From the NCBI GenBank assembly GCA_015523565.1, contig WAKA01000148.1, positions 1 through 24,000 on the forward strand: a stretch of DNA of 24,000 nucleotides, read 5' to 3'. Origin of the DNA: Candidatus Heimdallarchaeota archaeon. GTDB taxonomy: Archaea > Asgardarchaeota > Heimdallarchaeia > Heimdallarchaeales > Kariarchaeaceae. Positions 1 to 17,700 of this stretch are shown piece by piece. The position numbers were made by a program, and so were the translations under genes. A model generated the notes under the pieces. That model had not been told where the DNA came from, ran no database searches, and saw only the letters and a list, made by a program, of their open reading frames with translations. The stretch's first letter is position 1, and each line of letters begins with the position of its first letter.

Positions 1-514
1 CCCACCCCTTGTCGGCAAAGGAACCCTTGTATCCCATCCCCTTGACAGGAATCTTTCCCTTTTCAGCCTCATTCAATACAATAAGATAAGGATTGGTTGC
101 TTCTTTTGTAATGTCTTTTGTCTGCCAATAAGAATCCGCAAACTTGTTAATCGCAGGATTTCTTTCAACGGTACAGAATTCAGGATATTCCTGTACGCAT
201 CTAAGGCATCCCGTGCAATATTCCCGTCGAGGCATAAATCCGCCGAACGGTCCACTGAACACACCATAAATGCAAGGTCTGCTTAACAATGTATCCCTAT
301 ATTCTTTTTTCAGCAATTTGAAATTGTATGTGAAAACCTCCTTAAGCAGAGTCTTGAAGAGCCCGAATTTCCCCACTTTGGGATAGAAAGGATAAGGTTT
401 GGAAATTCTTGGAGGTGCAGGGGATGTTCTTATTTTGAAACGATTATATTCACCAGTGGTTTTTTCAAGATCAATGGTTTTCTGTGCAAGAAATACAACA
501 GATTTTTTGCTCAT
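1..514 (-). CDS. Partial CDS (first 171 codons, runs off the left edge). Cys-containing oxidoreductase-like protein, tentatively the N-terminal part of an FMN-binding glutamate-synthase-family protein.
   Basis: Absent from the ORF track because it is open at the window edge. My translation from the ATG at 514-512 reads MSKKSVVFLAQKTIDLEK...RPCIYGVFSGPFGGFMPRREYCTGCLRCVQEYPEFC...EAEKGKIPVKGMGYKGSFADKGW, with no stop down to position 2. The family assignment rests only on remembered family patterns (the Cys cluster followed by a G-x-G-Y-x-G-x-F...GW segment). Confidence 0.5.
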   Translation of the reverse strand, partial: MSKKSVVFLAQKTIDLEKTTGEYNRFKIRTSPAPPRISKPYPFYPKVGKFGLFKTLLKEVFTYNFKLLKKEYRDTLLSRPCIYGVFSGPFGGFMPRREYCTGCLRCVQEYPEFCTVERNPAINKFADSYWQTKDITKEATNPYLIVLNEAEKGKIPVKGMGYKGSFADKGW

Positions 515-797
515 TTCCTTGGAAGTTTGCGTTATCAATATCATGTTTGGACGACATCTTGTTTAAAAATGATTCGAAATGAAATCGTCCACACAACACC
601 ATCCAAATTTGAACAAAATACAATATTTTTTTAAAATTAAAGATATAATCCCGCATTTTACGAATTTCATAGGAACAGATTGATTTCCGAAAATTATCAG
701 GAATTGGTTGGAAAAAGGCAGGGAAAGCTTCAAAATAAAATATTCGAAGCTGCGCTAAAAAGACCAGATGAGAAAATATCCAGAATCGTTGAACAGT

Positions 798-1184
798 TTA
801 TCCGAGAATTTCCGCGATTTTCTTTGCTGCAATATCCATTTCATGGAAGATAAGCCCTAGTTTTGCATCCTTGCTTGTTGAAACAGTCAAGACAGCATTT
901 GACCCGGCAGACACTGAAATGACATGACCATCCTTACCCTCTACAAATATTTTCTGAAGTAATCCCCGATTTAGGTTATTGCTGATCTTTTCGCCAAGAG
1001 ACAGCATTGCGGCCGTCATTGCGGCGACAATGGCATCTTCATATTCAGGAGGCATTCGTGAGGCAATTGGTAGACCTTCAATTGAAACTATTGCAGCAGC
1101 CTCAATTTCTTTTACATTTACATCAATCTCTCGAAGGATTTCATCCAAATCTTTTGCTTTATCGTCAAATGAGAAGTCGAACAT
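798..1184 (-). CDS. Roadblock/LC7 (MglB-like) domain protein
   Basis: 128-aa ORF with an ATG start. AAAIVSIEGLPIASRMP...AAMTAAMLSLGEKI...GHVISVSAGSNAVLTVSTSKDAKLGLIFHEM fits the Roadblock/LC7 alpha-beta-alpha pattern. The antisense ORFs 979-1233 and 1007-1201 are treated as shadows. Confidence 0.85.
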   Translation of the reverse strand: MFDFSFDDKAKDLDEILREIDVNVKEIEAAAIVSIEGLPIASRMPPEYEDAIVAAMTAAMLSLGEKISNNLNRGLLQKIFVEGKDGHVISVSAGSNAVLTVSTSKDAKLGLIFHEMDIAAKKIAEILG

Positions 1185-1316
1185 GGTCAGATCCCCAGTA
1201 ATTCATTTAGAAACTGTTTCTAATGGATATTAATCATTCTTTAATAAAAACATATTGGAAAGCAATTGGTTTTTGTTCAATGATTTATGATACTATAGTT
1301 CGCATGGGAAAATCGA

Positions 1317-1353
1317 TTATATAAAGGCGCACAATGTTGGGATTTATTAAATT
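1317..1353 (+). promoter_or_regulatory. Candidate archaeal promoter region for the GPN GTPase gene (two TATA-like boxes)
   Basis: TTATATAAA lies at 1317-1325 and TTTATTAAAT at about 1343-1352, which is 47 nt and about 20 nt upstream of the ATG at 1372. It sits in the divergent intergenic region shared with the Roadblock gene. Confidence 0.35.
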
Positions 1354-1371
1354 TGTTCAAAAACTCCACGT

Positions 1372-2133
1372 ATGAACATCGGATATTTTCTGGGACCGGC
1401 TGGTTCTGGAAAGTCTCATGCAACTGCTGCGCTTTATGATTGGATGAACAGGGTAGAATTGGACGTTATCACGGTCAATTTAGACCCCGCTGTGATTAGG
1501 TTGCCCTATGCACCCGCAATAGACATAAGGCAATATGTTGATTATGAGGATATTGTGGATAGGTTTGAGCTGGGACCAAATGGGGCAATCATCGCCGCCA
1601 TGGACCAAGTTGCCTTGAATATTGACGAGGTGATTGAGGAACTGAAAAATTATGGGGCAGATTATGTCTTGGTTGACCTGCCGGGACAGATGGAAGCATT
1701 TGCTTTCAGGGGAAGTGGTCCCCTTATAATCTCAAGCCTGGCACAGGACAATATTGCGGCAGGGGCATTTTTGATAGACCCAATATTGTGCAACACAGCC
1801 TCAAGCTTCATTTCAATTTTGCTCTTTGGGGTTTCAATAAGTTATAGGCTTCACACAGGCATGGCATTTGTCATCTCAAAGGGGGACTTACTGAAGGAAA
1901 ACCGATTGATACGCATGCAGGAATGGGTGGAAAATCCAGAATTTCTCATGGAGGACTTGAGATTGGAAAAAAACATCCTTAACGCGGACCTTTCCCAAAG
2001 GATTGCACAATTGGTCATTGAAAACGAACACCTCAGTGAATTCCCTGTAATCTCGTCAGAAACCCATCAGAACATAGACTTGGCGTTTGCAGAATTTCAG
2101 AGGATTTGGAATTCCGAAGACATGTTTAGTTAA
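1372..2133 (+). CDS. GPN-loop GTPase (Npa3/XAB1/PAB0955 family)
   Basis: Walker A GPAGSGKS, the eponymous GPN loop in FELGPNGA, DLPGQME (switch II/Walker B) and SKGDLL in the NKxD position. 253 aa, the typical size for the family. Confidence 0.9.
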   Translation: MNIGYFLGPAGSGKSHATAALYDWMNRVELDVITVNLDPAVIRLPYAPAIDIRQYVDYEDIVDRFELGPNGAIIAAMDQVALNIDEVIEELKNYGADYVLVDLPGQMEAFAFRGSGPLIISSLAQDNIAAGAFLIDPILCNTASSFISILLFGVSISYRLHTGMAFVISKGDLLKENRLIRMQEWVENPEFLMEDLRLEKNILNADLSQRIAQLVIENEHLSEFPVISSETHQNIDLAFAEFQRIWNSEDMFS

Positions 2134-2194
2134 TGAAAAAATCCTTGTATTTAATCGATGAGTATTTTATAGGAGAAAAACACTAGGGGAATCA

Positions 2195-2971
2195 GTGAAA
2201 GAGAGGTTCTCGCCCTATAACCTTATTTACGCAATCTACAAGCGGAATCTGAAAAGGAAAGTCAAGGCAGGAACTATCCCAAAACATGTAGGGCTTATTC
2301 TGGACGGCAATAGAAGAGGGGCAACCACTTTGGGGATTTCCAAGGAACGCGGATACAAGATGGGGGCACAAAAACTTGAGGAGGTCCTGAATTGGGCCTG
2401 GGATTTGGGAATCAAAGCAATTTCCGTCTGGATATTCTCTACAGAAAACTTCCAAAGGTCAGATGATGAGAAGTCGGTCATTTTTAAACTTGCCAAGGAA
2501 AACGCCATCAAGATAAGGAATGATGAAAGGGTACATGAAAAGAAAATACAGGTGCGGTTTTCAGGAGAAATATCAATGCTTCCCGAAAGCCTCCAAGAGG
2601 AATTTCGGAAGACGGAAGAGGCGACAAAAGATTACAACGACTACATATTGAACATTTGTGTCGCATACGGCGGCAGAAAAGAGATTGTGCATGCCGTAAA
2701 GAAAATTGCCAAACATGTCAAGGATGGGAAACTCGATATTGATTCCATCAATGAGGAAATGATTGCCATGTATCTCTATACCACAGGCCTTCCCGACCCT
2801 GACCTGATAATAAGAACCTCTGGGGAGATACGGCTTTCAGGCTTCCTTCTCTGGCAGGGAGTCTATTCGGAACTTTATTTCACAGATGTCTACTGGCCAT
2901 TGTTCCGTGAAATTGACTTTTTGCGGGCAATTAGGTCATACCAGTTGAGACAAAGAAGATTTGGAAAATAA
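2195..2971 (+). CDS. uppS: cis-prenyltransferase: tritrans,polycis-undecaprenyl-diphosphate synthase
   Basis: HVGLILDGNRRGA, VWIFSTENFQR, NICVAYGGR, IIRTSGEIRLSGFLLWQ and the C-terminal RRFG are classical UppS motifs. The start is GTG at 2195, with no earlier in-frame ATG. Confidence 0.9.
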   Translation: MKERFSPYNLIYAIYKRNLKRKVKAGTIPKHVGLILDGNRRGATTLGISKERGYKMGAQKLEEVLNWAWDLGIKAISVWIFSTENFQRSDDEKSVIFKLAKENAIKIRNDERVHEKKIQVRFSGEISMLPESLQEEFRKTEEATKDYNDYILNICVAYGGRKEIVHAVKKIAKHVKDGKLDIDSINEEMIAMYLYTTGLPDPDLIIRTSGEIRLSGFLLWQGVYSELYFTDVYWPLFREIDFLRAIRSYQLRQRRFGK

Positions 2972-2981
2972 AGGGAAAACA

Positions 2982-3434
2982 CTATTTGGTACGACCAATA
3001 CGGAATTTGAGGATGGATTGCCTTTTATATGTCTCAAGAATGTAGTCATGGCTTTCTGGAAGCTCACGCTTCTTCAACAGGGAGTTGCGAACCAATGGCT
3101 CTGAAACATACACCACCATTCGATCAAGATATGGAAGTTGGGAAAAAAGATCAGGAACCAAGTCTTCATTGGGTACAACCAGTTTCATGCCAATAATATG
3201 CCCAAATGAATCACCAGGTTGCAGAACAGTCAATGAGATGACATCATCAATGACAGAATACCGGTCAACACCCACGTGATCAACCAATGCGGGTTTCGAA
3301 AGATAGAGATTAACGCCAGACAATCTTAGCTCGATTGCCAATTCCTCAAGCACATTCAGCTCAGATGGAGAAATCAATCGATCCAGGGAAACATTTGAAG
3401 CCCGGCGCAAACGTCTCAGACGTTTATAATACAT
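2982..3434 (-). CDS. Hypothetical protein (150 aa), no recognisable motif
   Basis: ATG start with a TATA box 25-32 nt upstream. Convergent with uppS across an 10-nt gap. Basic N-terminus (MYYKRLRRLRRA). The antisense ORF 3085-3279 is treated as a shadow. Confidence 0.6.
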   Translation of the reverse strand: MYYKRLRRLRRASNVSLDRLISPSELNVLEELAIELRLSGVNLYLSKPALVDHVGVDRYSVIDDVISLTVLQPGDSFGHIIGMKLVVPNEDLVPDLFSQLPYLDRMVVYVSEPLVRNSLLKKRELPESHDYILETYKRQSILKFRIGRTK

Positions 3435-3458
3435 CTACTTAGATTCTGTGGAAAACAG

Positions 3459-3466
3459 TATAAATA
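3459..3466 (-). promoter_or_regulatory. TATA box for the 2982-3434 gene
   Basis: The plus strand reads AGTATAAATACG (minus-strand CGTATTTATACT), ending about 24 nt upstream of the ATG at 3434. This spacing fits a leaderless or short-leader archaeal mRNA. Confidence 0.5.
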
Positions 3467-3505
3467 CGTTCACTAAAAAAAAGAACCTAGTGACAAGTTT
3501 CTTGA

Positions 3506-4315
3506 TTTTCAAAAAATAAGCAAGATCATGGAAGGAACCAGCCCCACGCCAAACGAGCACCAAAGGTGGTGAAGAACATGGAAAAGAGGTACCGAGACAA
3601 TCTGATTTCCCAAGCAAAAGAAGCCTCCCAAACCTTGCCTTCGAAAAGGTCGTTTTCCTTAAGTGGAGGGATAAAACGGAAATGCCTGCTCTATATGATC
3701 TCCCCCCATCGAGAAGAAGACATTCAGATCACGGGAAAAATCCCATTGAATAAACCAGTGAAAGACAATTTATTCAGATCAGGATTGTATACCGATGAAG
3801 CCATTAAAGGACTAAAATCGATCCCGATCGAACAAATCATATGACTCCCCAAAAAGATACTATGAAGCCTTCCCTCTATGGCTTGAAGCAAGATTGAGAA
3901 GAATACTCCATACATTGACTCTCAATCAAAATCCCCTGATACATAATTTTGAAGCTTGGAAAAAATAATATTCAGCTCAGGAAAACTGACCGATGTAATT
4001 AGTACAAGAAGAATTTGGGAACTCGCCAAAAAATACCTCGCAATAGGTTCAAGATTACAGATGACCAAATTCGGCAAACAAATCATCTCCAAGCCATACA
4101 AACCGTTCAGATATCTGACAATGCCAACCCCCATTTTCCTTGATCACAAGATATTCCAAAATGGCAACTTCATCAAAATGCTCAAAAAAATATTCCCAAA
4201 TAAACCAATCCCCAAAAATCTTGAAAAAATACCCTCCAGAAAAAAATCTATCTTGATATCCTTGAAACCGCACATCAATCGCGCAACAAACCCTTCCCAA
4301 AAAAGACATAGATAA
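3506..4315 (+). pseudogene. 5'-truncated, frameshifted fragment of a paralogue of the 1149-aa gene (equivalent to about its last 270 residues)
   Basis: Reading frames 2, 0, 2 in turn gives collinear similarity to residues ~885-1149 of the large ORF. RYYEAFPLWLEARLRRILHTLTLNQNPLIHNFEAWKK (3855-3965) matches HYYQKIHYWIEAQLRRILNRLTLDKDLFEQNLDKWCK. RIWELAKKYL..KPFRYLTMPTPIFLDHKIF matches HILEIAKRYL..RPFRSGAYLTPIFLDPKLF. Frame breaks fall at about 3816-3843 and in the A-run at 3959-3965. Confidence 0.75.
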
Positions 4316-4355
4316 TTTCTTCAACTCTGTGAAAAACGTGGCTGAATTCCTAAAT
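4067..4355. repeat. Left arm of a long inverted repeat (partner 8843-9127); perfect core 4255-4355
   Basis: By manual alignment, the reverse complement of 4255-4355 is identical (101/101) to 8843-8943. Outward, the match continues with substitutions and small indels to about 4067 and 9127. Confidence 0.9.
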
Positions 4356-4400
4356 AATATTGTTATCAAAATCACAAAAAGGATTTGATTCAAATATAGA

Positions 4401-4412
4401 TTTATAAATACC
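4401..4412. promoter_or_regulatory. Orphan TATA-like element TTTATAAATACC between the tRNA 3' end and the left repeat arm
   Basis: It is the identical 12-mer to the putative L18e promoter box at 19277-19288. The core TTTATAAA is palindromic, so orientation is ambiguous and the target is unknown. Confidence 0.3.
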
Positions 4413-4431
4413 GTAGGAAACAGGAACTAGA

Positions 4432-4531
4432 TGATCCGGGAGGGATTCGAACCCACGATCACGTGCAATTTGGATGTTATCCAATTTGACCATCCCCAAG
4501 CACGCATGTTACCAAGCTACACTACCGGATC
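4432..4531 (-). tRNA. tRNA-Pro (anticodon GGG) with a 26-nt intron at the canonical 37/38 position; no encoded CCA
   Basis: Hand-folded. Acceptor GATCCGG/CCGGATC plus discriminator A. D arm GTGT-AGCTTGGTA-ACAT. Anticodon stem CGTGC/GCACG with loop TTGGGG..T. T arm GTGGG-TTCGAAT-CCCTC (one U-U mismatch). The intron at 4468-4493 contains the hairpin TTGGAT-AAC-ATCCAA. The mature length would be 74 nt. Confidence 0.85.
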
Positions 4532-4541
4532 TACTATTTGT

Positions 4542-4557
4542 TGTGGAATTTTCCACA
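4542..4557. repeat. Perfect 16-nt palindrome TGTGGAATTTTCCACA, 11 nt upstream of the tRNA 5' end
   Basis: Read directly from the sequence. It lies between an A/T-rich TATA-like stretch (4561-4573) and the mature tRNA 5' end. It could be an operator or a leader hairpin; the function is unknown. Confidence 0.6.
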
Positions 4558-4889
4558 TTTGATAATTAGATAATTTTCTTTTAATGTTTTTTCATGGTTA
4601 CGTGTTAGATTTTTTGATTCTTTTTAATTCTTTATTTCAGTGGGTTTCTGTTAAAATATTGATGGATTGTTTTGGTTTTCTTTTTTTCCTTTATGAATTT
4701 TTTTGGATACTTTGGATGTTTGGATTGTTAATTGAATTTTAGATAACGTTTTTGTCAGAGTTAGAGCAGCAACAGATGGTTTTATGGGGTTTCCGTCATG
4801 TGATTTTCGATAATTCATATTTTCTTGTTTTCTATCATCAGATTGAGGATCACATTTGGCATTGTTAAATTTTCATCAAAGGGTTATGA

Positions 4890-4931
4890 GGAGAGAGATG
4901 GATTGATTTATCGGGAGAGAGATGGATTGAT
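4890..4931. repeat. Two exact 18-nt direct repeats GGAGAGAGATGGATTGAT (4890-4907 and 4914-4931; period 24 nt)
   Basis: Read directly from the sequence. They lie immediately 3' of the stop codon (4935-4937) of the 1149-aa ORF. Confidence 0.85.
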
Positions 4932-4934
4932 AAT

Positions 4935-7900
4935 TCATATCCTTGCAAACAGGATTTTGAGTTTTCCGATTTCAGTTTTGAAATTTTGGATAATATTGAA
5001 GAAATGGTTGTTTTTGTGTGGCAAATTCATTTTAAGAATTGCATTGATGTCGGCTTCAAATGTTTTTCTGTAATCAAGGACAGGTTCAGGTTTATTATCA
5101 ACAATTATATTTATATCGAATCGTTGTATGATTTTCCGATACTGTTTTTTGTTTTCTGCAAACAGTTTTGGATCAAGGAAAATTGGGGTCAGGTAAGCCC
5201 CAGATCGGAATGGTCTGTCACCGAGCGTTCTTTTTATTAGGACCTTTTCTGCATTTTCGTCATAAGCCAAAGTGTGACCTGGGACAAGATATCGTTTAGC
5301 AATTTCGAGGATATGTTTTTTACCAAAAATGGTTTCGAAAGTCACATCAGTATTTCCTAGTTTTAGTTTGCACCATTTATCCAAATTCTGTTCGAACAGG
5401 TCTTTATCCAACGTCAATCGGTTCAAAATTCTGCGGAGCTGTGCTTCGATCCAATAATGGATTTTTTGGTAATAATGTTCTTTATTTTTAAATATCAAGA
5501 GATTTTCCCGTCCCGTTTTTGTTCCAAGATGTTTTGTTCCTAAAAATTCAGGGTCTATAGTGTCTGGATTTTGTGGAAAATGTCCAGGGAGCATTCTTAG
5601 GTCGAGAATTGTAAACACATTTCCTACAGGTTCGTTATTTGTTTTTGGATCAAACCATACGAAAACATTTTTCAAGTGGAGACAATTCATTTTAAATTTA
5701 ATCTTTACCAAGTTATCGGTAATTCCAGAGGCTACTTGTTTAAGTTCTTCAATCATAGACAATTCGAAAGGTTTTCCATGTTTTTTAGTGAAATCCATGA
5801 TTGTTTCTTGGTGGAAATAATTCATGAGTTCGTTGAAATATGTTGCAAGAAAGCTTATTAGTCTGCCATTTTTCATCAAATGTTTAAGAAAACTTTCAGC
5901 CCGTTCGATGTTAAGTTTTTTGTTCACCATCAGTGAATAATCATTCAATGTTCCTGTGGGGGGTCTGAAATGCAAATAGGTAAGTTTTTGTTTTTCATGG
6001 AAAGCTTCCACTATTTCAATCAACGGGACGGGGGGTTCTACAGCAGAGTATATTTCGGCGGTCAATCCTCCCAAAGGGCTGGGCAAATGACTATTGGAAA
6101 ATGATCGATGTCCAATTGGCAATTTTCCAAACCATAGCAAGACAATATCGGTTTCCTCTTCAGCGATAGCTTTTTTGTTAATTCTCCATCCTTTCAAGTA
6201 ATTGGATATTTTCTCTTCAGGAATCAGGAATTTAAGAAGGGATGATGGAGATTGTATGTATTTGACAGGGGCGTGGTGGTTTTCATAATGTATTCCAGCG
6301 GTCACACGAGTTGTGGTGACATAATTGTCGACTTCCACGTAGACCATGGTTTCTCCGTTTTGATTTGGTTTTGTTAAAATTATTGGATTTTTACTTTTTG
6401 TGTTGACCCTTTCGATTATTTTCATAAACAGATGTGGATCAATACCTCTCGTATTCCACTTCAGACCAAATTCAGAAACATCAAAAGAGCGATAATGATT
6501 GAAGGTTATTGGAAAATCCCCTCTCAATTTACCCAACAGATTTTCAACTTCCGAAGCAGTGGTTCCTGCATATGAGAGAATGTTTACTTCAGGCATCCAT
6601 CTGCCCAAGATGAAATTCGATTGGTGTCCTTGGTTCACAGTTGAAAAGACCAGATTGTACACTTGCTCCTGAAATCTTCTGAATTGATCCAGATCGTCTG
6701 TTTGAAGAGGAGCTCTTGAAAAAAGAGAAATGTCGTCAATTTCAATGGAAAACATGTCGAGATCATCGAAGTACCTGACAATGCCGTTCCGATCGATGAA
6801 TTTTGTGATACCAAAGCGATGAACTATTCCTTTTGGAGTATTGATTGTTTGTGGTGCAAAGAAGGTGTCTTTGTCAATGATACCGATATAAAGGGTCCCG
6901 TTTGCATCCCTCAAAGGGATTTGTATAATGTCCGATAGGTTTGATATGATGTCCCCGACAGAGGTGGAAACTAAGTTGTCTTGTTTTTTTATGATTAAGA
7001 GGTTATTTTCCATTGCATCTTTTATAGTATTGATTGAGCTAAACCCGATGCCAAGGTCTTTTGGTTCAGGCCACCTCCCACTTCTCATGAATTCAATCAT
7101 CTGATGTTGTGCAATGGAATTCTCCATCTTCTGGACGTATCCTTTGATTATGCAGTGAACAATCTGTTTCTGGTTCTCTGAAAGTTGTGAGAATTTCAGC
7201 TCACCGAAGCTCCTTTTTGCGATTGCCAACTTGAATTCATTTGTTGCAAGAGAAACTGCATTGGAAGAGCGTAACCCTTCTGAATCGACATAAAACAATT
7301 GGTCAATTCCCAGTGCACAGGTCAATTTTATCCAATCCCGTTTCAAGCGGTCGATTCGATCGAATCCGACACCACCAATAAACAAGCGTTTATCCTCTAT
7401 TGACCTAATCAAAGCAGGGTAGTCTTCAATCTTTCCAAGCACTAGTTTGGTATTTTCATTTCCTTTCAGTGTAATCCTGTTTGCATCGGTTATGAATGTT
7501 CTTCGATCCAAATTATCTGAAAGGTTTATTTTATACTCTTCAATGGTGTTCATAAAAGTCTTATCCTGTATTTGCTCAATCAGGAAGTTGGTGGTTCTTG
7601 TCAGGTCATCGGTTCCTTCAATTGGAGTGCTTGGGATAATCAATGTCAGCCTGTCTGTACCAGATGACACCCCATTTGCATCTAGGGTATGGCGTTTGAT
7701 GTGATCAATTGCATTTTTCAGGGCTTCATCAACGAGATCGACTGAAGTGCATGAAACAGGGATGTTCCTTTCCTTTATCTTATTGATGACTTGCTTTTTC
7801 TTTGCATCCGAGAGTTTGAACACTGTACCATTCAACACATTGTCTTCATTGGTGGAGCTGTTGAGGATCAGGCTTGCAGGGAAGATATCATTGTCCAACA

Positions 7901-8384
7901 GCCTGTTTACGAGGAAATAATAACTCAATTCTTTTTCAAGCATGTGAAGAATGAATTTTTCAGCCCTTTCGCCTTGATTGAAGAAAATTTCGGATCCTTT
8001 GATGAAGTTGGCGTTCGGATCCTTGATTACGTCAGTAATGGAATTGTATTTTGAGATCTCCCCAACATTCTTATTTGACTTGATAAACTCATAGTATTCG
8101 CCAAGAAGGTTTTTGTCCTTTGTTTCAAAATAGGTTTGCACCTTTTTGTCCTTTATGAACTGCGACTTTGTCTTGGTATGGTGGAAATAGTACATGAGAT
8201 TGACCTTTCGCAAGAAGATCTCGTTCAGTGAGATTTCCTTGATGGAATTAAGGTAATTCATGTCATAAAGCTTGGTCAGGTTGTTCTTCAACTCTTCATT
8301 CATTGGGATAGGTTCTGAAAGTTTGTGGGAAGCACAGCTCATGCATGAAAAGTGGAAGACCGGATACTGGTTACTGTCCGTCAA
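4935..8384 (-). CDS. Large protein of unknown function (1149 aa)
   Basis: This is the longest uninterrupted ORF in the window. Decayed paralogue fragments on both sides show it belongs to a real gene family. The annotated start is TTG at 8384, with the first in-frame ATGs at 8342 and 8303. I recognised no P-loop, helicase, HNH, Zn-finger pair, HExxH, recombinase or transposase signature. Confidence 0.8.
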   Translation of the reverse strand: MTDSNQYPVFHFSCMSCASHKLSEPIPMNEELKNNLTKLYDMNYLNSIKEISLNEIFLRKVNLMYYFHHTKTKSQFIKDKKVQTYFETKDKNLLGEYYEFIKSNKNVGEISKYNSITDVIKDPNANFIKGSEIFFNQGERAEKFILHMLEKELSYYFLVNRLLDNDIFPASLILNSSTNEDNVLNGTVFKLSDAKKKQVINKIKERNIPVSCTSVDLVDEALKNAIDHIKRHTLDANGVSSGTDRLTLIIPSTPIEGTDDLTRTTNFLIEQIQDKTFMNTIEEYKINLSDNLDRRTFITDANRITLKGNENTKLVLGKIEDYPALIRSIEDKRLFIGGVGFDRIDRLKRDWIKLTCALGIDQLFYVDSEGLRSSNAVSLATNEFKLAIAKRSFGELKFSQLSENQKQIVHCIIKGYVQKMENSIAQHQMIEFMRSGRWPEPKDLGIGFSSINTIKDAMENNLLIIKKQDNLVSTSVGDIISNLSDIIQIPLRDANGTLYIGIIDKDTFFAPQTINTPKGIVHRFGITKFIDRNGIVRYFDDLDMFSIEIDDISLFSRAPLQTDDLDQFRRFQEQVYNLVFSTVNQGHQSNFILGRWMPEVNILSYAGTTASEVENLLGKLRGDFPITFNHYRSFDVSEFGLKWNTRGIDPHLFMKIIERVNTKSKNPIILTKPNQNGETMVYVEVDNYVTTTRVTAGIHYENHHAPVKYIQSPSSLLKFLIPEEKISNYLKGWRINKKAIAEEETDIVLLWFGKLPIGHRSFSNSHLPSPLGGLTAEIYSAVEPPVPLIEIVEAFHEKQKLTYLHFRPPTGTLNDYSLMVNKKLNIERAESFLKHLMKNGRLISFLATYFNELMNYFHQETIMDFTKKHGKPFELSMIEELKQVASGITDNLVKIKFKMNCLHLKNVFVWFDPKTNNEPVGNVFTILDLRMLPGHFPQNPDTIDPEFLGTKHLGTKTGRENLLIFKNKEHYYQKIHYWIEAQLRRILNRLTLDKDLFEQNLDKWCKLKLGNTDVTFETIFGKKHILEIAKRYLVPGHTLAYDENAEKVLIKRTLGDRPFRSGAYLTPIFLDPKLFAENKKQYRKIIQRFDINIIVDNKPEPVLDYRKTFEADINAILKMNLPHKNNHFFNIIQNFKTEIGKLKILFARI

Positions 8385-8842
8385 ATTGAACTCACCAAGT
8401 GTAGGCCGGATGCTGAATGGCTTGCAAACCTATTGTTTTCAACAAATTGCACATCAACATACCTCTTCTCCTTGTTCTTGAAGAATACGCCGTATCCGTT
8501 AGGTTCTGCGGTAACTGTATGTTCCCTCCACGGATTTCTTGACACACAGGCGAACAAACTTGACGATTGTCTTGTTTTCAGTCGCTGAAACCTAGCGGGT
8601 TCAGACAGCTTGGCGAGACCATTTCGCCGTTAATCGGAACCTATCCTTTGTGACTATTTCCCATGATGGTTCTGAAGTGTCTATGATCCTTTCAGGTTTC
8701 ACAACTATAAGTCTTGGTAAACCGAAATGGAACGGATTCCTATCTCAACATAATTTGAATACAAAAAACGACCCATTTGTTCATCCATTCAGGGATGGTG
8801 ACTAATTCACAAGTCCAAATGGGTTCTAGATTTTATGGAAAC

Positions 8843-9127
8843 ATTTAGGAATTCAGCCACGTTTTTCACAGAGTTGAAGAAATTATCTATGTCTTTTTTG
8901 GGAAGGGTTTGTTGCGCGATTGATGTGCGGTTTCAAGGATATCGAGATAGATTTTTTTCTGGAGGAGTATTTTTTCGGGGTTTTTGGGAATTGGGTAATT
9001 TGGGAAGATTTTTTTGAACATCTTGATGAAGTTTCCATTTTGGAATATTTGTTCATAGATAATTGGGGTTAGCATTGTAAGATACCTGAATGGTACTTGG
9101 ATTGGAGACGATTTGTTTGCCGAATTT
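8843..9127. repeat. Right arm of the long inverted repeat (partner 4067-4355); perfect core 8843-8943
   Basis: See the left arm. After the core there is one mismatch (8944), then 21 matches, then a 1-nt indel. Identity over the outer part is about 80% by eye. Confidence 0.9.
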
Positions 9128-9200
9128 TATCTTCAGGTTTGTTGGCAAGGAGGTGGCATAATTAGTGGGCATTTGACTTGGTTTCACTGATGAAGGTCAG
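8887..9200 (-). pseudogene. Second 5'-truncated, frameshifted paralogue fragment of the 1149-aa gene (C-terminal part only)
   Basis: Minus-strand translation gives ..KFGKQIVSNP.. then, after a frameshift, MLTPIIYEQIFQNGNFIKMFKKIFPNYPIPKNPEKI... This parallels the left fragment (KFGKQIISKPYKPFRYLTMPTPIFLDHKIFQNGNFIKMLKKIFPNKPIPKNLEKI). A further 1-nt indel changes the last ~25 codons. The upstream limit is uncertain; weak similarity may reach about 9290. Confidence 0.65.
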
Positions 9201-9376
9201 CCAAGCGCAGTCCGCAGGATCTTTGGGGTTCATCCCCACTGCAGGCTTGCTCTCTGGACTCATCAAAGTGTTCCTTGGGAAGAAGTTCCAACGGCAACGC
9301 CAAGCTTATAATTCTTGGAAGGGAATAATAAAAAATATTGTGTATTTAGGAATAGTGTGAATACAATAGATTTCGT

Positions 9377-9877
9377 TTAGTCATTGCGATGCGCATTTTC
9401 CCATTTGTCGATGGGGGTGAACAGGATGCATGGCATTGGGGTATGTTTTTTGGTCAGGACGGCGGGGAGTGACATGACCTCACAGCCAGTATACCTTTTG
9501 TAGCTGGATATCAGCAGGGTAATTCCGACATAGGTTGTTGATCCCACAAAAAGTTCGAGGTTCTGCAAGAAATATCCCAAAGCCATGAAAGCACCGACAA
9601 TGCCATTTGCGAGGGTTGCCGCGGCATATTTGTTGGGCTGGATTTTTTTGGACTCAATCAGTTTGTGGAGGACAAGATATATGAGGGTGATGAGGATGAA
9701 AACGGAGAGGGAGAGGATGAGGGACATCAACAGGTTCGGTTTGTTGCTCACAATGAATACCCTGATGGCAAGTGCAAGGAAGAGAATGCCAAGGATGGTT
9801 CTTGTGGTCATTCCGATTGGTCCTGTCTTGGAGGGTTGGATGTTTTCTGTTTCACTTGTGTCTGTAAGTTCTGCCAT
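9377..9877 (-). CDS. Integral membrane protein (about 4 TM helices) with a C-terminal Cys-containing tail
   Basis: 166 aa with an ATG start. Four hydrophobic segments (ILGILFLALAIRVFIV, LLMSLILSLSVFILITLIYLVL, GIVGAFMALGYFL, YVGITLLISSY), then YTGCEVMSLP...PCILFTPIDKWE. The antisense ORFs 9585-9968 and 9665-10006 are treated as shadows. Confidence 0.65.
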   Translation of the reverse strand: MAELTDTSETENIQPSKTGPIGMTTRTILGILFLALAIRVFIVSNKPNLLMSLILSLSVFILITLIYLVLHKLIESKKIQPNKYAAATLANGIVGAFMALGYFLQNLELFVGSTTYVGITLLISSYKRYTGCEVMSLPAVLTKKHTPMPCILFTPIDKWENAHRND

Positions 9878-10062
9878 ACCCGCGCAAGAAGTTTTTCATT
9901 TTTTTTTCTTTCGATCCGCGAGACATGGGGGATTTCTTTTCACTATGTTATTCTGGAAGGGTGTATAACTGTCTTTCTGTGTACTCAGGATGTTCTTATT
10001 TTCTGATTTTTGTTCAAAAAGATTAAGTGCAAGGTAAACAAAGTTGATTAGAGGCGTTAAGA

Positions 10063-10686
10063 TTGTCAGAGTACCTGAACGTATTGATGGGGTTGGTCAA
10101 TCGCAAACCCCGTATTGGCATAGTCATCGATCTTAACGTATTGGATGTTGGTCGTGAAACCCGTCTGGACGTTTTGGGTGCATTGCGAGACAGGTTCAAT
10201 GAGTTGGGGCAGGTACGGCAGGCCTTGGTCATATCTCCGCGGCAGTTGAAACGTGATGAGCTGGAAGAGGTTCAGAGGGCGGGGTTCTCATTGAAAGTTG
10301 TGCCCAAGGCGCATTCGGAATTGAGTTTTTTGCTGGAGACATATGATTTGGCATTGAACGGGCAGATAAACGTGATTGTGATCGGCTCAGCAGATGAGCA
10401 ACTGACACCGTTGTTTTTGGCATGCAGGAACATACTGAATGAAACGATTGGGTTTTTTTTGGGAAAGGTGGGGGAGAAAGTCTTGCGTTCATTCAATGCG
10501 GTTGTGACACCAGAGACATTGGAGACATTTACTTTGTTTGAGGCAAGTGAGCCTGAATATGAGGCGGTGCGCAATTTTGTGGTTCAAAGCATCCAGACGG
10601 AGAACGGCAAGGAAACCCAAGAGATGGAGCCTGAAAATGTTGAGGCAGATTTGTTCGGTCCCATATCAGAGAATTTGGAAGATTAG
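10063..10686 (+). CDS. Hypothetical protein, possibly a NYN/LabA-like (PIN-fold) domain with partly substituted acidic residues and an acidic C-terminal tail
   Basis: RIGIVIDLNVLD resembles the first NYN strand (D-x-N). NVIVIGSADEQLTPLF resembles the S-G-D-S-D-F-x-P-L strand, but the second Asp is replaced by Gln. Start is TTG at 10063 or ATG at 10087. The gene is noticeably GC-richer than its neighbours. Confidence 0.55.
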   Translation: MSEYLNVLMGLVNRKPRIGIVIDLNVLDVGRETRLDVLGALRDRFNELGQVRQALVISPRQLKRDELEEVQRAGFSLKVVPKAHSELSFLLETYDLALNGQINVIVIGSADEQLTPLFLACRNILNETIGFFLGKVGEKVLRSFNAVVTPETLETFTLFEASEPEYEAVRNFVVQSIQTENGKETQEMEPENVEADLFGPISENLED

Positions 10687-10748
10687 AATTTTGGGGACCA
10701 AGGGGCGGGAAGATCAGGGATTGGAAGAGGACAGGATTTCAAAAGATT

Positions 10749-12359
10749 TCAGCCAATAGAGATCCATGCCGCGCTGATTCGCTGAGATTTGATTTCATAG
10801 TAACATGTGAAGTTTCCTTCTTGGCTCGTTATTTTTTGTAAAATGAGATTTTTAAGTGCAATTGTTGACTTTATTGAAAGATTGGTCAGTTTTGGGATGG
10901 TATCTCTGAGTTGTTTTCTGGTTTGATCCTGACCTTGGAAAAGCATTTTATTTGATGTAAGATCATAGACGATTATTTTTGGGTGGACAAATTCCATTGC
11001 ACGGTCAATTTCTTTTTTGATGAGGCATGAAATGAATTTTTCAACAAGTTCAATGGGGTGGAAAGGGGAGATGAGAAATTCAGGGGAAAAGACATTGCCT
11101 TTGGAGATGACCAATTCAATTGATGTGGTTGCAGTTATATCGTTGAGTGGATTTCTTCTAAGGAGAACCAAGTCTGCAAATGCCCCTTTTTTGATTTCAC
11201 CTATCAATTTGTTTCCGAAAACTTTTGCTGCGTTGTAAGTTGTTGCCTGCAAGACGTCTTCCGGACTCATGCCTGCAATGTTCATGATTCTCATTTCCTC
11301 ATGGATTGAAACACCATGCAATGTGCCGATATTGCCTGCGTCAGTTCCTGTTGCAATGGTTATACCATTTTCATGCAATTTTTTGAGATTGTGCATTGCA
11401 TTTGAGACAAGGGGTGAAAAGTCGTCATTTTCTTTGTTTTCATCTAGAGGAAGTGCTTGGATTGAGAACAGGTCAAACCATGAAGAGATTGCACGAGGGC
11501 ATCCCCATTTTTCTTCAAACATAGAGGTGTTTTTTGTACCTGCAAATACGTCACGATAGCCCTGTCTTACTTGAAGTGTTGGAATACAGATGGCATTTTT
11601 TGCCAAGTCAATGAATTCTTGGTCTATATGTTGGTCAAAGACCCCGTGAACCAAGATGTCTGCCCCTTGTTTAAGGGCTTCTTTTGCAGTTTTTAGCTCT
11701 GTGGCATGCACTGCGGCACGATACCCAAGTGCATGGCTTTCATTTATTGCCGCGGCAATGATCTTACAATCATTTTCGAAGTGCTGGGGACGATAGATAA
11801 ACCATATTTTAATGAAGACAGGGTTATGTTCAGCACATTTTCTTACAAGTTCCTTTGCATGCTCTTCAGATTGTGCTTGGATTATGGGGGGGTCACCAAG
11901 ATCCAATTTTTCTCTTGAGACAGTTGAGACCAGCGGACCTGTAACTTGGACATGTGGGGAATGGGAATTTCCTGCAAGTTCCCTGACTTCAAAATTCCAG
12001 AATGGCCCACCGCAATCGACAACGGCAGTGACACCAGACACAAGATATCTCTTGAAGGTATCTGGGAGGCTTTTTTTGATGTTATTGATTTCTTCAGAAT
12101 AGGGGACATGGTTTGTCAAGTCGAGTATGTCAGGTCTTGTATAGAGACCAGAGCTTTGGAAGAAGTGAATATGTGCATCGATGAGACCGGGGATTGCAAA
12201 CAGGTTGGAACAGTCAATAGTTATATCATTCTCTTCAGGCTCAGGTTCAATATTGTAATATATCTCTTTGATTAGTTCACCTTCAATTTTGATGGCTGAG
12301 GAATGGCACATTTTTTTCTGTTTGGAATCAAAGAAGGTGACATTGGTCAGAATGACCAT
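10749..12359 (-). CDS. Metal-dependent amidohydrolase-superfamily protein with a C-terminal ~110-aa extension
   Basis: PGLIDAHIHF (HxH metal site), AAVHATE, ILVHGV, ATGTDAG, GAFADLVLL (the typical C-terminal beta-sandwich return). The extension ELVEKFISCLIKKEIDRAMEFVHPKIIVYDL... looks NTF2/SnoaL-like. Confidence 0.85.
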   Translation of the reverse strand: MVILTNVTFFDSKQKKMCHSSAIKIEGELIKEIYYNIEPEPEENDITIDCSNLFAIPGLIDAHIHFFQSSGLYTRPDILDLTNHVPYSEEINNIKKSLPDTFKRYLVSGVTAVVDCGGPFWNFEVRELAGNSHSPHVQVTGPLVSTVSREKLDLGDPPIIQAQSEEHAKELVRKCAEHNPVFIKIWFIYRPQHFENDCKIIAAAINESHALGYRAAVHATELKTAKEALKQGADILVHGVFDQHIDQEFIDLAKNAICIPTLQVRQGYRDVFAGTKNTSMFEEKWGCPRAISSWFDLFSIQALPLDENKENDDFSPLVSNAMHNLKKLHENGITIATGTDAGNIGTLHGVSIHEEMRIMNIAGMSPEDVLQATTYNAAKVFGNKLIGEIKKGAFADLVLLRRNPLNDITATTSIELVISKGNVFSPEFLISPFHPIELVEKFISCLIKKEIDRAMEFVHPKIIVYDLTSNKMLFQGQDQTRKQLRDTIPKLTNLSIKSTIALKNLILQKITSQEGNFTCYYEIKSQRISAAWISIG

Positions 12360-12430
12360 ACATCAAGAGAATTTTAGGAGTAGATAAGTTTATCATATGC
12401 AAAAAATAGAGATGTGAAACAATGTTCAAT

Positions 12431-15256
12431 TCAATTGAGCTTTTTGTGATACTTTTGATCAGGTTCCTGTTGGCTCAATGTCGCTTGGGCGGCGGCGAGA
12501 CGTGCAACAGGGACACGATATGGGGAGCATGAAACGTAATCAAGACCGATCTTGTAGCAGAAGTGGATGGATGCGGGATCACCGCCCTGTTCACCGCAAA
12601 TTCCAACCTTTAGGTATTTTCCTGCCTTTGCGGCACTTTCCCTGCCCATTGCAACACACATGTCCATGAGTTTTCCGACACCATTGGTATCGATTGTCTG
12701 GAATGGGTCATTGGGGATTATTCCTTCTTCGATATAGAAAGGCAGGAATTTTCCGACATCGTCTCTTGAAAAGCCAAGGGTCATTTGATGTAAATCGTTG
12801 GTTCCGAAAGAGAAGAAATCGGCACCGAGTTCACCATCTGCGATTTCGTCTGCTGTAAGGGCGGCTCTGGGAATTTCGATCATGGTTCCGACCTTATAGT
12901 CTATTCTTTCTCCTTTTTCTTCGAACACTTTTTCAGCAGTTTCGTCGACAATTTGCCTAGAAAGGGTGAATTCCTCCTTAAAGCCCACAAGAGGAATCAT
13001 GATTTCAGGATGGACTTCAATTCCTTCTTTTTTGACGTCAAGGGCGGCTTCAATGATGGCACGTGTTTGCATTTCCATGATTTCAGGGAAAAGAAGCCCC
13101 AGTCTGCATCCTCTAAGACCGAGCATAGGGTTTGCCTCTTGGTAGTAAAGGACTTTTCTCAAGATTTTGATATTATGTGCAGTCTGTTCGGGATTTAGGA
13201 TTTGTTGCCAGATTTTTTCCCTGATTTCCAGTTCTTTTGGCAAGAATTCGTGAAGTGGAGGGTCAAGGAGCCTGATTGTGACGGGCAATCCGTGAAGCAC
13301 CCTGAACAGTTTTGTAAAGTCGTTTCTTTGCAGGTCAATCATTTGATTCAGGGCATTGAGTCTTTCCTCTTTTGTTTCTGCCAATATCATTTCCTGAACA
13401 AGAGGCAGGGCGTCAAAAAACTGGTGTTCGGTTCTTGCAAGTCCAATGCCTTGTGCCTTGAATTCGACTGCAATTTTTGCGTCTTTTTCCTTGTCCGCAT
13501 TGGTTCGAACCTTGATTTTTGCGAATTCGTCAGCCCAATCAAGAACAGTGAGGATATCATCAGGAAGTTTTGTAGGAGTGAATATTGGCAGGTATTCTTT
13601 GAATATTTCTGCTTTATCAAAAACCTCCATGGAGATTATGTCTCCTTCATTGAGGACAAAGCCGTTTTTTGTTCTAAGTTTTTTGCCGAGAAGGTCCATT
13701 CCAGAATTGCTTGCCCCAACAATGACCCTTTTGCCGATTTGCCGGCCGACAAGTGCCGCGTGGGAGGTCAATCCCCCAGTCATGGTAATAATGCCTGCCG
13801 AAGCGACCATTCCATGGAAATCTTCAGGAGAAGTCTCTTTCTTTATTAGGATGAGGCTTGGCACTTTTTTCCCGTTTTCCAGTCTCCATTTGGTGATTTT
13901 GAAGGGGGGATCAATTTCACCCTTCACAACTGCTTCAGCAAAATCGGAATCAAAAACTACATGACCTGCGGCAGCACCGGGTCCAGCGGGCAATCCAGAG
14001 CCAATAACAGTGGCTTTTTTGACGGGGGCGTTTTTTACAACTTCACTTAATGGTTTCTTATGAATCTGCTCGTCAAAATCAGGGATATCATAATAGAGAT
14101 GTTTCTTGGGATCCTCCCAAACCACACTTGGGAACATGCTTGACTCAATATCACGGGGAGTTACCCGCATGACTGCTTCTTCCCTTGCAATCATCTGCTC
14201 TTTGACAAGATCAACTGCGATTTTGGCGGCGGCGGTTCCAGTGCGTTTTCCAGCACGGGTCTGCAATATGTATAGCTTGCCGCTTTCAACAGTAAATTCA
14301 ATGTCCTGCATGTCCCTGTAATGTTTTTCCAATTTTTTGGCAAATTCTTTCAGTTGGTGATAGATTTCAGGCATTGTGTTTTCCAATTCGGAGATTGGCA
14401 TTGGTGTTCTGATTCCTGCCACCACATCTTCACCTTGTGCCTGCATAAGGAATTCACCATAGATTTCATCGACACCCGTGGCAGGATTTCGGGTAAAGAG
14501 GACACCAGTGCCTGATTTTTCATCCAGATTTCCGAAAACCATGGTTTGAACATTAACAGCAGTGCCGAGATCATCTGGAATACCTTCGAATTTTCTGTAG
14601 TTTCGGGCTCGTTTATTGTTCCAAGATTTGAAAACAGCGTGGATTGCCATTTCAAGTTGCTTATATGGATCGTTTGGGAAGGGTTCGCCGTACTCTTTTT
14701 GGAAATGATCCAGAAATTGACTGATGATACGATCCAATGATTCTTCAGACAATTGGTAATCATATTCCACATTTGCCCTTTTCTTTTCGTTTTCCAATAT
14801 TTCATTGAACGGTTCCGTTGGAATGTCACAGACAACGTCTGCGAACATGAAGATGAGTCTGCGGAAGCTGTCTTTGACAAAACGGGGGTTGCCCAGTTTT
14901 TTGGAAAAACGAGGGACAATCTCCTGTGTAAGTCCAACGTTAAGAACGGTATCCATCATTCCAGGCATACTTATTTTGGCGCCAGACCGTACAGAAAACA
15001 GGAGTGGCAAATCCAAGTCACCAAATTTTCTTCCCATTTTTTCTTCCACTTTCTTGACGCCTTCCAATACTTCATCCCACAGTCCTTCAGGGAATTTGTT
15101 CCCGTTTTCCAAGTATTCAACACAGACCTTTGTTGGGATTGTAAAACCAGGAGGAACCGGCAATCCAAGTTTGGTCATGGTTGCCAAGGAAGCTCCTTTT
15201 CCTCCCAGCAGATCCTTGTCAGGATCAATTTCTCCGAATAGAAAAACTCGTTTCAT
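12431..15256 (-). CDS. ppdK: Pyruvate, phosphate dikinase
   Basis: 941 aa. N-terminal LLGGKGASLATMTKLGLPVPPGFTI, phosphohistidine loop GGLTSHAALVGRQIGK, C-terminal PEP-utiliser TIM barrel (GLARTEHQF, FFSFGTNDLHQMT, VGICGEQGGDP). A GGTGA SD-like site lies at 15264-15268. Confidence 0.95.
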   Translation of the reverse strand: MKRVFLFGEIDPDKDLLGGKGASLATMTKLGLPVPPGFTIPTKVCVEYLENGNKFPEGLWDEVLEGVKKVEEKMGRKFGDLDLPLLFSVRSGAKISMPGMMDTVLNVGLTQEIVPRFSKKLGNPRFVKDSFRRLIFMFADVVCDIPTEPFNEILENEKKRANVEYDYQLSEESLDRIISQFLDHFQKEYGEPFPNDPYKQLEMAIHAVFKSWNNKRARNYRKFEGIPDDLGTAVNVQTMVFGNLDEKSGTGVLFTRNPATGVDEIYGEFLMQAQGEDVVAGIRTPMPISELENTMPEIYHQLKEFAKKLEKHYRDMQDIEFTVESGKLYILQTRAGKRTGTAAAKIAVDLVKEQMIAREEAVMRVTPRDIESSMFPSVVWEDPKKHLYYDIPDFDEQIHKKPLSEVVKNAPVKKATVIGSGLPAGPGAAAGHVVFDSDFAEAVVKGEIDPPFKITKWRLENGKKVPSLILIKKETSPEDFHGMVASAGIITMTGGLTSHAALVGRQIGKRVIVGASNSGMDLLGKKLRTKNGFVLNEGDIISMEVFDKAEIFKEYLPIFTPTKLPDDILTVLDWADEFAKIKVRTNADKEKDAKIAVEFKAQGIGLARTEHQFFDALPLVQEMILAETKEERLNALNQMIDLQRNDFTKLFRVLHGLPVTIRLLDPPLHEFLPKELEIREKIWQQILNPEQTAHNIKILRKVLYYQEANPMLGLRGCRLGLLFPEIMEMQTRAIIEAALDVKKEGIEVHPEIMIPLVGFKEEFTLSRQIVDETAEKVFEEKGERIDYKVGTMIEIPRAALTADEIADGELGADFFSFGTNDLHQMTLGFSRDDVGKFLPFYIEEGIIPNDPFQTIDTNGVGKLMDMCVAMGRESAAKAGKYLKVGICGEQGGDPASIHFCYKIGLDYVSCSPYRVPVARLAAAQATLSQQEPDQKYHKKLN

Positions 15257-15303
15257 AAAAAGCTCACCACTATTCTATACTGATATAAGTCCGAGTTCTA
15301 GCG

Positions 15304-15310
15304 TATAAAA
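15304..15310 (-). promoter_or_regulatory. TATA box candidate for ppdK
   Basis: The minus strand reads TTTTATA about 48 nt upstream of the ATG at 15256, in the 87-nt gap after the coiled-coil gene. Confidence 0.4.
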
Positions 15311-15343
15311 ATTGTCCTGAATAATTGGAAATTTGTTCCTTTT

Positions 15344-16597
15344 TCAGGAAGAAGCACTGTTTTTTACAAATTCAGGGATTGGAGGAAGAGATTTGGTCAA
15401 TGTATGGCCTGTGTTTTGTTTGAGGCGTTCGGTAAGCTTTTCCACCTCGCCGATTATTTTTTCCGCTTCTCTCAGTTCTCTTTCTATTATTCGTTTCATA
15501 TCCCTTTTAATGCCCTCCAGCTTGTTCTGGAGTTTGTCTATCTTGCCTTGCAGGTCAAGATCCTTAAGTTCAGTGGCGATATTTTCTCTTTTTTGTTTTA
15601 GCTCCCTGCTTTGTTTCCAAATGGATTCAAGTTCTCCATCAATTAAGGAATTAAGATGCTTAATAGCGCTTTCTTTCTTGTCTCGTTTCATTTCTATTTC
15701 ATTACTTTCCAATAGCCTGAGAATATCTGAAAAGAGACTCTTCAGCCCATTTACGGAAGATTGGTTTGCAAATGCGGTGGCGGCATCGGTTACAATTTCT
15801 TTGGCAAGGGTCACGTCTATTTTTTTCTTGCTTTTGCTTGATTTGTTGATGAATTTTCGAAGGGCCTTCCTGATTTCTGAAAGGGAATTGTCAAGGTTCT
15901 TTTGCAAGTTTGAAAATGCGGCGTCGACTTCCTTTTTTTCAGAAAGCAATGGGGAATTTTTGAGTTCCATGATCTGGGAGGACACAGTCTCTGCCTCTTC
16001 ATTAAGCTTGGCAAGTCCTTCCTGTTGCATTTCAAGGTCTTCCAGAAGTTGAAGGTATCGTTTTTCAAGTTCAAGAATGTCGTCAAGTATCCAAAGCCCT
16101 TCCTCAATTGAAGCTTTGGTATTATATTTATTGATCAGGAATTTCCTAGTTTCATCAATATCTTTCAGAACACGAAGATACGCTTTGTTTAAGCTTTTAA
16201 CACGTTTTGCATATTTCCTGTCCAATAATTTGATATATTTGCTGAAGACATTTTTTTCCAGTGTCTCCAATTCTTTTTGGACACTGTCGATAAACCTATT
16301 GACTGATTGGAGGGTAATGTTTTGTGGAGTTTGGAGCAAATCAACAGTTTCAGCCACACCCTCGTAGATTTTATGGCTATATTTTTCAATTGCACTTGTC
16401 TCATTTGAGTCTGGGTTGGCAACTCGGAATTCTTCTGCAATTATTTTCATATCAGATAGATGTTTTTCAATATTTTTGAGAAATTTGTCCTTAACCTTTT
16501 TTCTTTCCTTGGAAAGGACAGTATCTGCTTCTTTTTCGATTTTTGCACGTAGTTCATCAATTTCTTCCTTTAATTCCGAGTTCGCCATTATTTGCAA
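15344..16597 (-). CDS. Long coiled-coil protein (K/E/L-rich, ~415 aa), unknown function
   Basis: Heptad-like K/E/L-rich sequence throughout (ELRAKIEKEADTVL..., LELEKRYLQLLEDLEMQQEGLAKLNEEAE..., KDLDLQGKIDKLQNKLEGIKRDMKRIIERELREAEKIIGEVEKLTERL). Start is TTG at 16597 or, more likely, ATG at 16588. It lies 48 nt downstream of the GTPase gene on the same strand. Confidence 0.8.
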   Translation of the reverse strand: MQIMANSELKEEIDELRAKIEKEADTVLSKERKKVKDKFLKNIEKHLSDMKIIAEEFRVANPDSNETSAIEKYSHKIYEGVAETVDLLQTPQNITLQSVNRFIDSVQKELETLEKNVFSKYIKLLDRKYAKRVKSLNKAYLRVLKDIDETRKFLINKYNTKASIEEGLWILDDILELEKRYLQLLEDLEMQQEGLAKLNEEAETVSSQIMELKNSPLLSEKKEVDAAFSNLQKNLDNSLSEIRKALRKFINKSSKSKKKIDVTLAKEIVTDAATAFANQSSVNGLKSLFSDILRLLESNEIEMKRDKKESAIKHLNSLIDGELESIWKQSRELKQKRENIATELKDLDLQGKIDKLQNKLEGIKRDMKRIIERELREAEKIIGEVEKLTERLKQNTGHTLTKSLPPIPEFVKNSASS

Positions 16598-16645
16598 TTA
16601 AATTCACATCTTTTTCTAATTTTGCATACGAATTCGTGTATTTAA

Positions 16646-17667: not shown

Positions 17668-17700
17668 CTGTATTCCTCAATATACGTTTAGTTATTTTAG

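Follow-up and report, generated by a model that had tools for sequence, protein, structure and literature searches.

What does a long pair of inverted repeats signify when it brackets one large orphan gene and a tRNA gene on an archaeal chromosome: the termini of a mobile element, the crossover sites of an invertible segment, or something more ordinary? This question is raised by a 24,000-nt stretch of DNA (hereafter the window; positions 1 to 24,000 of contig WAKA01000148.1, assembly GCA_015523565.1) from Candidatus Heimdallarchaeota archaeon, an Asgard archaeon of the Heimdall group. A sequence-only reading had noticed a 101-nt perfect inverted match there, continued outward by diverged sequence, around a tRNA-Pro gene and an open reading frame (ORF) of 1,149 aa, and had proposed recent recombination between the arms and a segment prone to inversion. 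In this analysis we call the intact enclosed ORF G1, and its paralog in the same family G2. We find that the arms are the 3' coding stretch common to two dead copies of G2, and that the inverted repeat is probably no dedicated device but a side effect of decay in a gene family and of homologous recombination at the tRNA-Pro locus. The features on which the argument turns are these:

4060 to 4355, plus strand: left arm, derived from the 3' coding part of a decayed G2 copy (family codons about 1040-1138), from self-blast, tblastn and the family hidden Markov model (HMM)
8843 to 9134, minus strand: right arm, 292 nt remaining of a second G2 copy, from self-blast and tblastn
4255 to 4355, no strand assigned: perfect core of 101 nt, paired with 8843-8943 and interpreted as a gene-conversion tract
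4935 to 8384, minus strand: G1, an intact 1,149-aa ORF of an orphan family, on the same strand as tRNA-Pro and upstream of it
8385 to 8842, minus strand: region upstream of G1, 458 nt, lineage-specific

Direct comparison confirmed that the reverse complement of 8843-8943 is 4255-4355, at 101 of 101 positions and with a mismatch directly on both sides. A gapped self-comparison of the whole window returned a single inverted pair, 4060-4355 against 9134-8843 (88.9% identity over 297 columns, E = 1e-88), whose alignment holds three indels of 2, 3 and 1 nt. Identity outside the core is 83%, in line with the diverged outward match with small indels that had been described before. At that background, 101 consecutive matches have a probability of about 1e-8, and the longest exact inverted match in 20 shuffled windows was 13-22 nt. 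Only 2 differences between the arms fall within 4223-4355, the core and its adjoining stretch; in all, at least 30 positions distinguish the two arms, which are therefore two distinct loci. Divergence is greatest at the outer ends, whereas the inner ends are identical. Detectable homology ends abruptly at 4355/8843, with nothing significant past the inner edge of the arms. Between them lie 4,487 nt (4356-8842) containing the tRNA gene, an A/T-rich spacer (GC 0.30), G1 and the 458 nt upstream of it, just as the earlier inventory of the segment had it.

That inventory treated the arms as a repeat only and missed their coding origin. Comparison of G1 with the rest of the window by tblastn gave matches at 3840-3965 and 3995-4213 on the plus strand (residues 965-1101, E = 2e-9), which contain the motifs EAxLRRIL..LTL and TPIFLD, and the family HMM matched 3816-3965 (E = 1e-11) and 3953-4312 (E = 6e-9) in the left flank and arm. 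Two G2-type proteins from other metagenomes match the window better than G1 does. P0015 aligns to 3947-4252 with 54% identity (E = 1e-33) and to the right arm, 9093-8971, with 74% identity (E = 3e-15), and P0014, an N-terminal fragment, aligns to 3695-3841 with 59% identity (E = 5e-15). The C-terminus of G1 itself matches the arms at about 71% over 48 nt only. On the left, family homology runs outward beyond the arm, so that the left G2 copy (about 3638-4388, plus strand) consists of two pieces:

3638 to 3841, plus strand: G2 N-terminal fragment, about residues 1-49 plus a conserved 5' leader, from tblastn and from blastn to two homologous loci, L010 and L014, at 73-74%
3816 to 4388, plus strand: G2 C-terminal fragment, from about family position 960 to the end, from tblastn, the HMM and frame translations

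In this copy, residues of about 1-49 are fused out of frame to those from about 960 to the end, at the junction 3841/3842, through an internal deletion of about 900 codons. It also carries a frameshift and an in-frame stop near 3950-3965, and its frame changes between about 4232 and 4290. Its putative stop codon at 4386-4388 and its last 33 nt were placed by eye from a TLPKKD...RI* tail, and the C-terminal tail had no support from the HMM. The right copy, 292 nt long, is cut on its 5' side at about 9135-9140 and has a 2-nt frameshift; the 1-nt and 2-nt indels between the arms count as disabling lesions. Given the frameshifts, the in-frame stop and the out-of-frame deletion junction, both G2 copies are pseudogenes.

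To place these fragments in evolution we turned to relatives of the locus. The nearest relative of the amidohydrolase beside it (53% identity) lies on two contigs, L014 (GCA_964645535.1) and L015 (GCA_003696825.1), which reproduce the gene order of the window. Window positions 794-3484 and 9338-22277 are collinear with L014, and the interval between them, 3485-9337, shares with its 5.87-kb L014 counterpart only two blocks, 3638-3841 and 4431-4613, corresponding to the G2 N-terminal fragment and to tRNA-Pro with about 90 nt upstream. Three more features are needed here:

3485 to 9337, no strand assigned: rearranged, lineage-specific interval of 5.85 kb between the flanks collinear with L014
4432 to 4531, minus strand: tRNA-Pro(GGG), with a 26-nt intron at position 37/38 (Rfam, 51 bits)
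4574 to 4606, minus strand: 33-nt block upstream of the tRNA, 43-75 nt from the tRNA 5' end and 100% identical to L014

In L014 a G2-type gene, present as ORFs of 246 aa and 488 aa, stands tail to tail with an intron-less tRNA-Pro(GGG), 105 nt away, and G1 is absent from the orthologous locus of both L014 and L015. Both common blocks are inverted and in reversed order in the window, so that the G2/tRNA-Pro module faces opposite ways relative to the conserved flanks. By these alignments, at least one inversion took place at the tRNA-Pro locus after the lineages split. The inversion spans at least 3638-4613 and crosses the left arm. Because the G2 N-terminal block lies outside the arm-bounded segment and is inverted as well, turning 4356-8842 round would not by itself account for the difference. 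The proposal that the segment is prone to inversion is thus borne out in part: the locus has been inverted in evolution, but what was inverted is not simply the enclosed DNA.

A third lineage is represented by L009, a 776-nt contig that keeps (in 1-120 and 327-773) the DUF2299-G2 neighbourhood seen in L014. Its G2 is a frameshifted C-terminal fragment only, starting at about family position 960, like the fragment in the window. The window lacks the DUF2299 gene block found beside G2 in L014 and L009. Gene order across these lineages points to G2 as an old resident of the tRNA-Pro locus that has been decaying independently in each of them. We considered a deletion junction between N- and C-terminal parts common to L009 and the window and rejected it, as the DNA upstream in L009 is unrelated to the N-terminal fragment of the window. 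The L009 fragment is 75-77% identical to the window arms in the core and 74-75% outside it; being no more conserved in the core, it makes selection on a functional site unlikely. With 101 of 101 matches against a background of 83%, the core is best explained as a recent gene-conversion or recombination tract, in agreement with the sequence-only reading. The L009 contig breaks off within the stretch that matches the core, possibly a sign that L009 has a repeat at this place as well.

The tRNA-Pro gene belongs to the older fabric of the locus. ARAGORN in bacterial mode missed it on account of the 26-nt intron, and calls the intron-less ortholog in L014 (17023-17096) as tRNA-Pro(ggg). The exons are identical at 74 of 74 positions and the intron is absent from the related metagenome-assembled genome (MAG), so the intron was gained or lost recently. 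Around the 33-nt block at 4574-4606 the DNA is about 70% identical to L014 or unalignable, and the block is probably a tRNA promoter or leader. Both tRNA-Pro and this block are present in L014 without G1; they are chromosomal DNA rather than the cargo of an element.

How might the structure have arisen? We propose that G2 originally resided beside tRNA-Pro(GGG), tail to tail, and that in the window lineage it was reduced to two dead pieces in opposite orientation, with G1 between them and upstream of the tRNA, while the 5.85-kb interval was rearranged and the G2/tRNA-Pro module turned round at least once. The data are equally compatible with two histories. In the first, the module would have been inverted as a whole, and part of the G2 3' region would later have been copied, in inverted orientation, to a place beyond G1. 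In the second, two full inverted G2 copies would have flanked G1 and the tRNA and recombined, after which the copy on the amidohydrolase side would have lost its 5' part and the DUF2299 gene block. In either, general recombination would later have copied about 100-130 nt between the fragments and created the perfect core, by gene conversion, possibly with an accompanying crossover, through the host's general recombination system. The comparisons themselves establish what the arms are, that both copies are dead, that the locus is orthologous and oppositely oriented in L014, and that the core is not conserved across lineages; we infer the order of these events, conversion as the mechanism and any involvement of the arms in inversion.

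Several points weigh against this account. It leaves the origin of the second, inverted G2 fragment unexplained, with at least two orders of events fitting equally well. The inversion could have occurred in the lineage of the window or in that of L014. The second G2 ORF of L014 (488 aa) has no significant match to the arms, so that it is L009 and the N-terminal block that support orthology of the arm region. Finally, a role of G1 itself in recombination is possible.

Inverted duplicates of paralogs or pseudogenes, homogenised by intrachromosomal gene conversion, serve as substrates for chromosomal inversion. The window resembles such systems in having two inverted, diverged coding copies, a perfect patch within 83%-identical DNA, an orientation difference between lineages and no dedicated recombinase. 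It differs from typical cases in that the family is an uncharacterised orphan, one copy is down to 292 nt and the inversion extends past the arm-bounded segment. As a repeat structure it is nothing new in kind, the sort of result to be expected when paralogs decay and gene conversion acts on them. What is more interesting as a lead is the tRNA-linked orphan family to which G1 and G2 belong.

Five homologs of G1 were found in 5.8 billion clustered proteins, and a family profile search found 14 representatives among 1.84 billion proteins, several of them fragments and the longest 1,156 aa. Scanning GTDB representatives added one further G locus; scans of JGI metagenomes and IMG/VR added no relatives. 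As for function, ten family members gave no consistent match in Pfam, PHROGs, PADLOC or NCBIfam, profile searches of G1 against PDB sequences gave none, and a predicted model of G1 (pLDDT 67) had no Foldseek match in PDB or BFVD. The 458-nt region upstream of G1 had no Rfam match to a structured RNA, and its folding was not significant (z = -1.8). A tandem pair of 24-nt repeats, TTATGAGGAGAGAGATGGATTGAT and TTATCGGGAGAGAGATGGATTGAT, lies at 4884-4931, directly 3' of the G1 stop codon. Family members and the tRNA genes near them are arranged as follows:

G1 in the window: tRNA-Pro(GGG), with G1 403 nt upstream of the tRNA on the same strand
G2 in the window and in L014: tRNA-Pro(GGG), with G2 convergent with the tRNA
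L002, L005 and L008 (P0005 lineage): tRNA-Val(GAC), with the G gene 97 nt upstream of the tRNA
L007 (P0002): an intron-bearing tRNA, by eye probably tRNA-Glu(UUC), with the G gene 151 nt upstream of the tRNA
L011 and L012 (P0009): tRNA-Met(CAT), about 500 nt from the G gene and divergent from it
L001: no tRNA, arrangement not applicable

Each tRNA-bearing G locus that we fetched has exactly one tRNA, always the one beside the G gene, a pattern very unlikely to arise by chance at typical archaeal tRNA density, by our estimate and not by computation. The family is confined to a few MAGs of Heimdall-group Asgard archaea, decays repeatedly and adjoins four or five different tRNAs. In the GTDB representative L008 the G gene is split into two ORFs (9791-13025), and it is intact in the 90%-similar L002 (1842-5069), which shows that some lineages can do without the gene and that it is decaying in them. 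Metagenome ERZ23495365 contains three divergent G genes, 28-45% identical to one another, on scaffolds 208, 396 and 988 (L013, L001 and L011), which are similar in GC (0.39-0.41).

These observations lend some weight to a different explanation, which we regard as possible but doubtful: that the G genes (G1, G2 and about a dozen relatives) are the hallmark of an undescribed mobile or selfish element, minimal and consisting of a single gene, which in Heimdall-group Asgard archaea inserts next to tRNA genes. Its enzyme would have no detectable similarity to known integrases or transposases, the tRNA-Pro hotspot would have been hit repeatedly, by G2 and then by G1, and the arms would be relics of older insertions and of recombination between them. 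Members lie within 500 nt of different tRNAs (Pro, Val(GAC), probably Glu(UUC) and Met(CAT)), their genomic contexts differ from locus to locus, G1 is missing from the orthologous locus, pseudogenes and fragments are frequent in the family, and the family is very rare and taxonomically narrow. However, paralogs are only 28-59% identical, and there are no near-identical copies that would show recent movement. Nor did we find terminal repeats, target-site duplications or attachment-site (att) repeats around any member: direct or inverted repeats bounding a G1 unit were not found, nor any target-site duplication, att-type partial tRNA repeat or other element-delimiting repeat, and partial, att-like tRNA copies were absent from the four G loci searched for them. 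No integrase or transposase signature was seen, and the earlier statement that no such gene is visible agrees with our scan of the window proteins, in which none was recognisable: neither G1 nor its neighbours matched a recombinase, a transposase or a defence protein, and searches for a transposase in Pfam, PHROGs, NCBIfam, PADLOC, PDB sequences and Foldseek had no hit. IMG/VR holds no homologs, and the synteny of G2 in at least two lineages speaks for long residence, not recent movement.

Known tRNA-associated elements offer partial parallels. Aloposons of Ca. Heimdallarchaeum consist of tandem genes for proteins of 3,000-6,000 aa upstream of tRNA genes, with four conserved upstream genes that include a MinD/ParA-like ATPase (Wu et al. 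2022, PMC8813620). Like them, G genes belong to a Heimdall-group host, are large, of no known function and upstream of tRNAs, adjoin different tRNAs depending on the genome and have truncated copies elsewhere. The tRNA arrangement itself is shared: on the strand of the G gene and 97-403 nt downstream of it lies a tRNA for Pro, Val or probably Glu; the exceptions are Met, which lies upstream in one lineage, and the one locus without a tRNA. Unlike aloposons, the window has a single gene of 1,149 aa (in a family whose longest member is scarcely larger), housekeeping neighbours and no set of four upstream genes. A likeness also exists to tRNA-targeting integrative elements of the SSV and pNOB8 types, in that accessory DNA sits at tRNA genes and relics pile up at one tRNA. 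In contrast to elements with tyrosine integrases, there is no integrase domain and no direct repeat of part of the tRNA, the unit is a single gene, and the G gene is mostly 5' of the tRNA. The G family might reveal a new DNA-integration enzyme.

Far less probable is the view that the arms are the terminal inverted repeats of a transposon-like element with G1 and tRNA-Pro as its cargo. It has in its favour that an inverted pair of about 300 bp brackets a 4.5-kb unit with one large orphan ORF. However, the arms are coding-derived and family homology on the left runs past the arm; their outer ends are the most diverged and their inner ends identical, the reverse of what functional termini would show; and tRNA-Pro with its upstream block is orthologous chromosomal DNA that occurs in L014 without G1. 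Moreover, no G homolog locus has flanking inverted repeats, the window contains no second copy of the unit, and no transposase is recognisable, although a novel enzyme could still be involved. The locus is a worked example of pseudogene relics that present themselves, in a MAG, as long "terminal inverted repeats".

We give still less credence to a programmed switch, in which a site-specific recombinase would invert the segment and alter expression of G1 or the tRNA. Inverted repeats do flank a gene here, and orientation does differ between lineages. As in the Hin/Gin/Cin systems, shufflons and phase-variable hsdS loci, a segment is bordered by inverted repeats, and an intact family member has silent C-terminal gene fragments in its vicinity. 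The differences are that no recombinase or invertase is found in the 24-kb window, the arms lie outside G1, the expressed gene, and the fragments are frameshifted. Because the arms are in pseudogenes, a flip would change no recognisable gene fusion or promoter junction. Known invertases act on short crossover sites, whereas the arms are long and have diverged, and both available assemblies show the locus in a single orientation. The second of these (GCA_027071915.1, contig JALSYK010000380.1; L006) is 99.94% identical to the window with both arms arranged identically, and all six differences lie far from the arms, inside the amidohydrolase gene.

Just as improbable is an assembly artefact, by chimeric joining or repeat collapse: the source is a metagenome assembly, but the arms are too different from each other, L006 recovers the same structure, L013 (ENA scaffold_208 of ERZ23495365) is 100% identical to the window over the 18,342 nt that they share (window 1-18342), and read pairs are typically longer than the 101-nt core. 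The same low standing applies to the idea that the arms are real small protein genes, which draws on an 84-aa gene in the NCBI annotation of L006 (9198-9452, corresponding to window 4055-4309, minus strand) in the left arm. This ORF runs antisense to the G2 pseudogene. It is on the other strand that the strong protein homology is found, the right-arm counterpart is broken, and the ORF is probably spurious, left open by the A-rich sense strand.

Housekeeping genes surround the locus. Its neighbours include genes for a membrane protein, an NYN-like protein, the amidohydrolase and PPDK, and the housekeeping neighbours overall comprise a GPN-loop GTPase, UppS, the amidohydrolase, PPDK, RpoD, RtcA and an HdrD-like protein. 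Two Roadblock/LC7 genes and one for an Arf-like small GTPase (MglA-like according to NCBI in a relative), at 798-1184, 16646-17215 and 17347-17667, are typical Asgard signature proteins whose synteny is kept with L014. Ribosomal protein S9 has its best named matches in Ca. Kariarchaeaceae (58% identity) and Heimdallarchaeota (55%), both within Promethearchaeati, the Asgard archaea, and one relative has an S9 (P0155) that is 91% identical. A 337-aa ORF on the minus strand (19323-20336) lies opposite three plus-strand genes for ribosomal proteins, L18e (19342-19701), L13 (19704-20153) and S9 (20158-20589), and is not a real gene.

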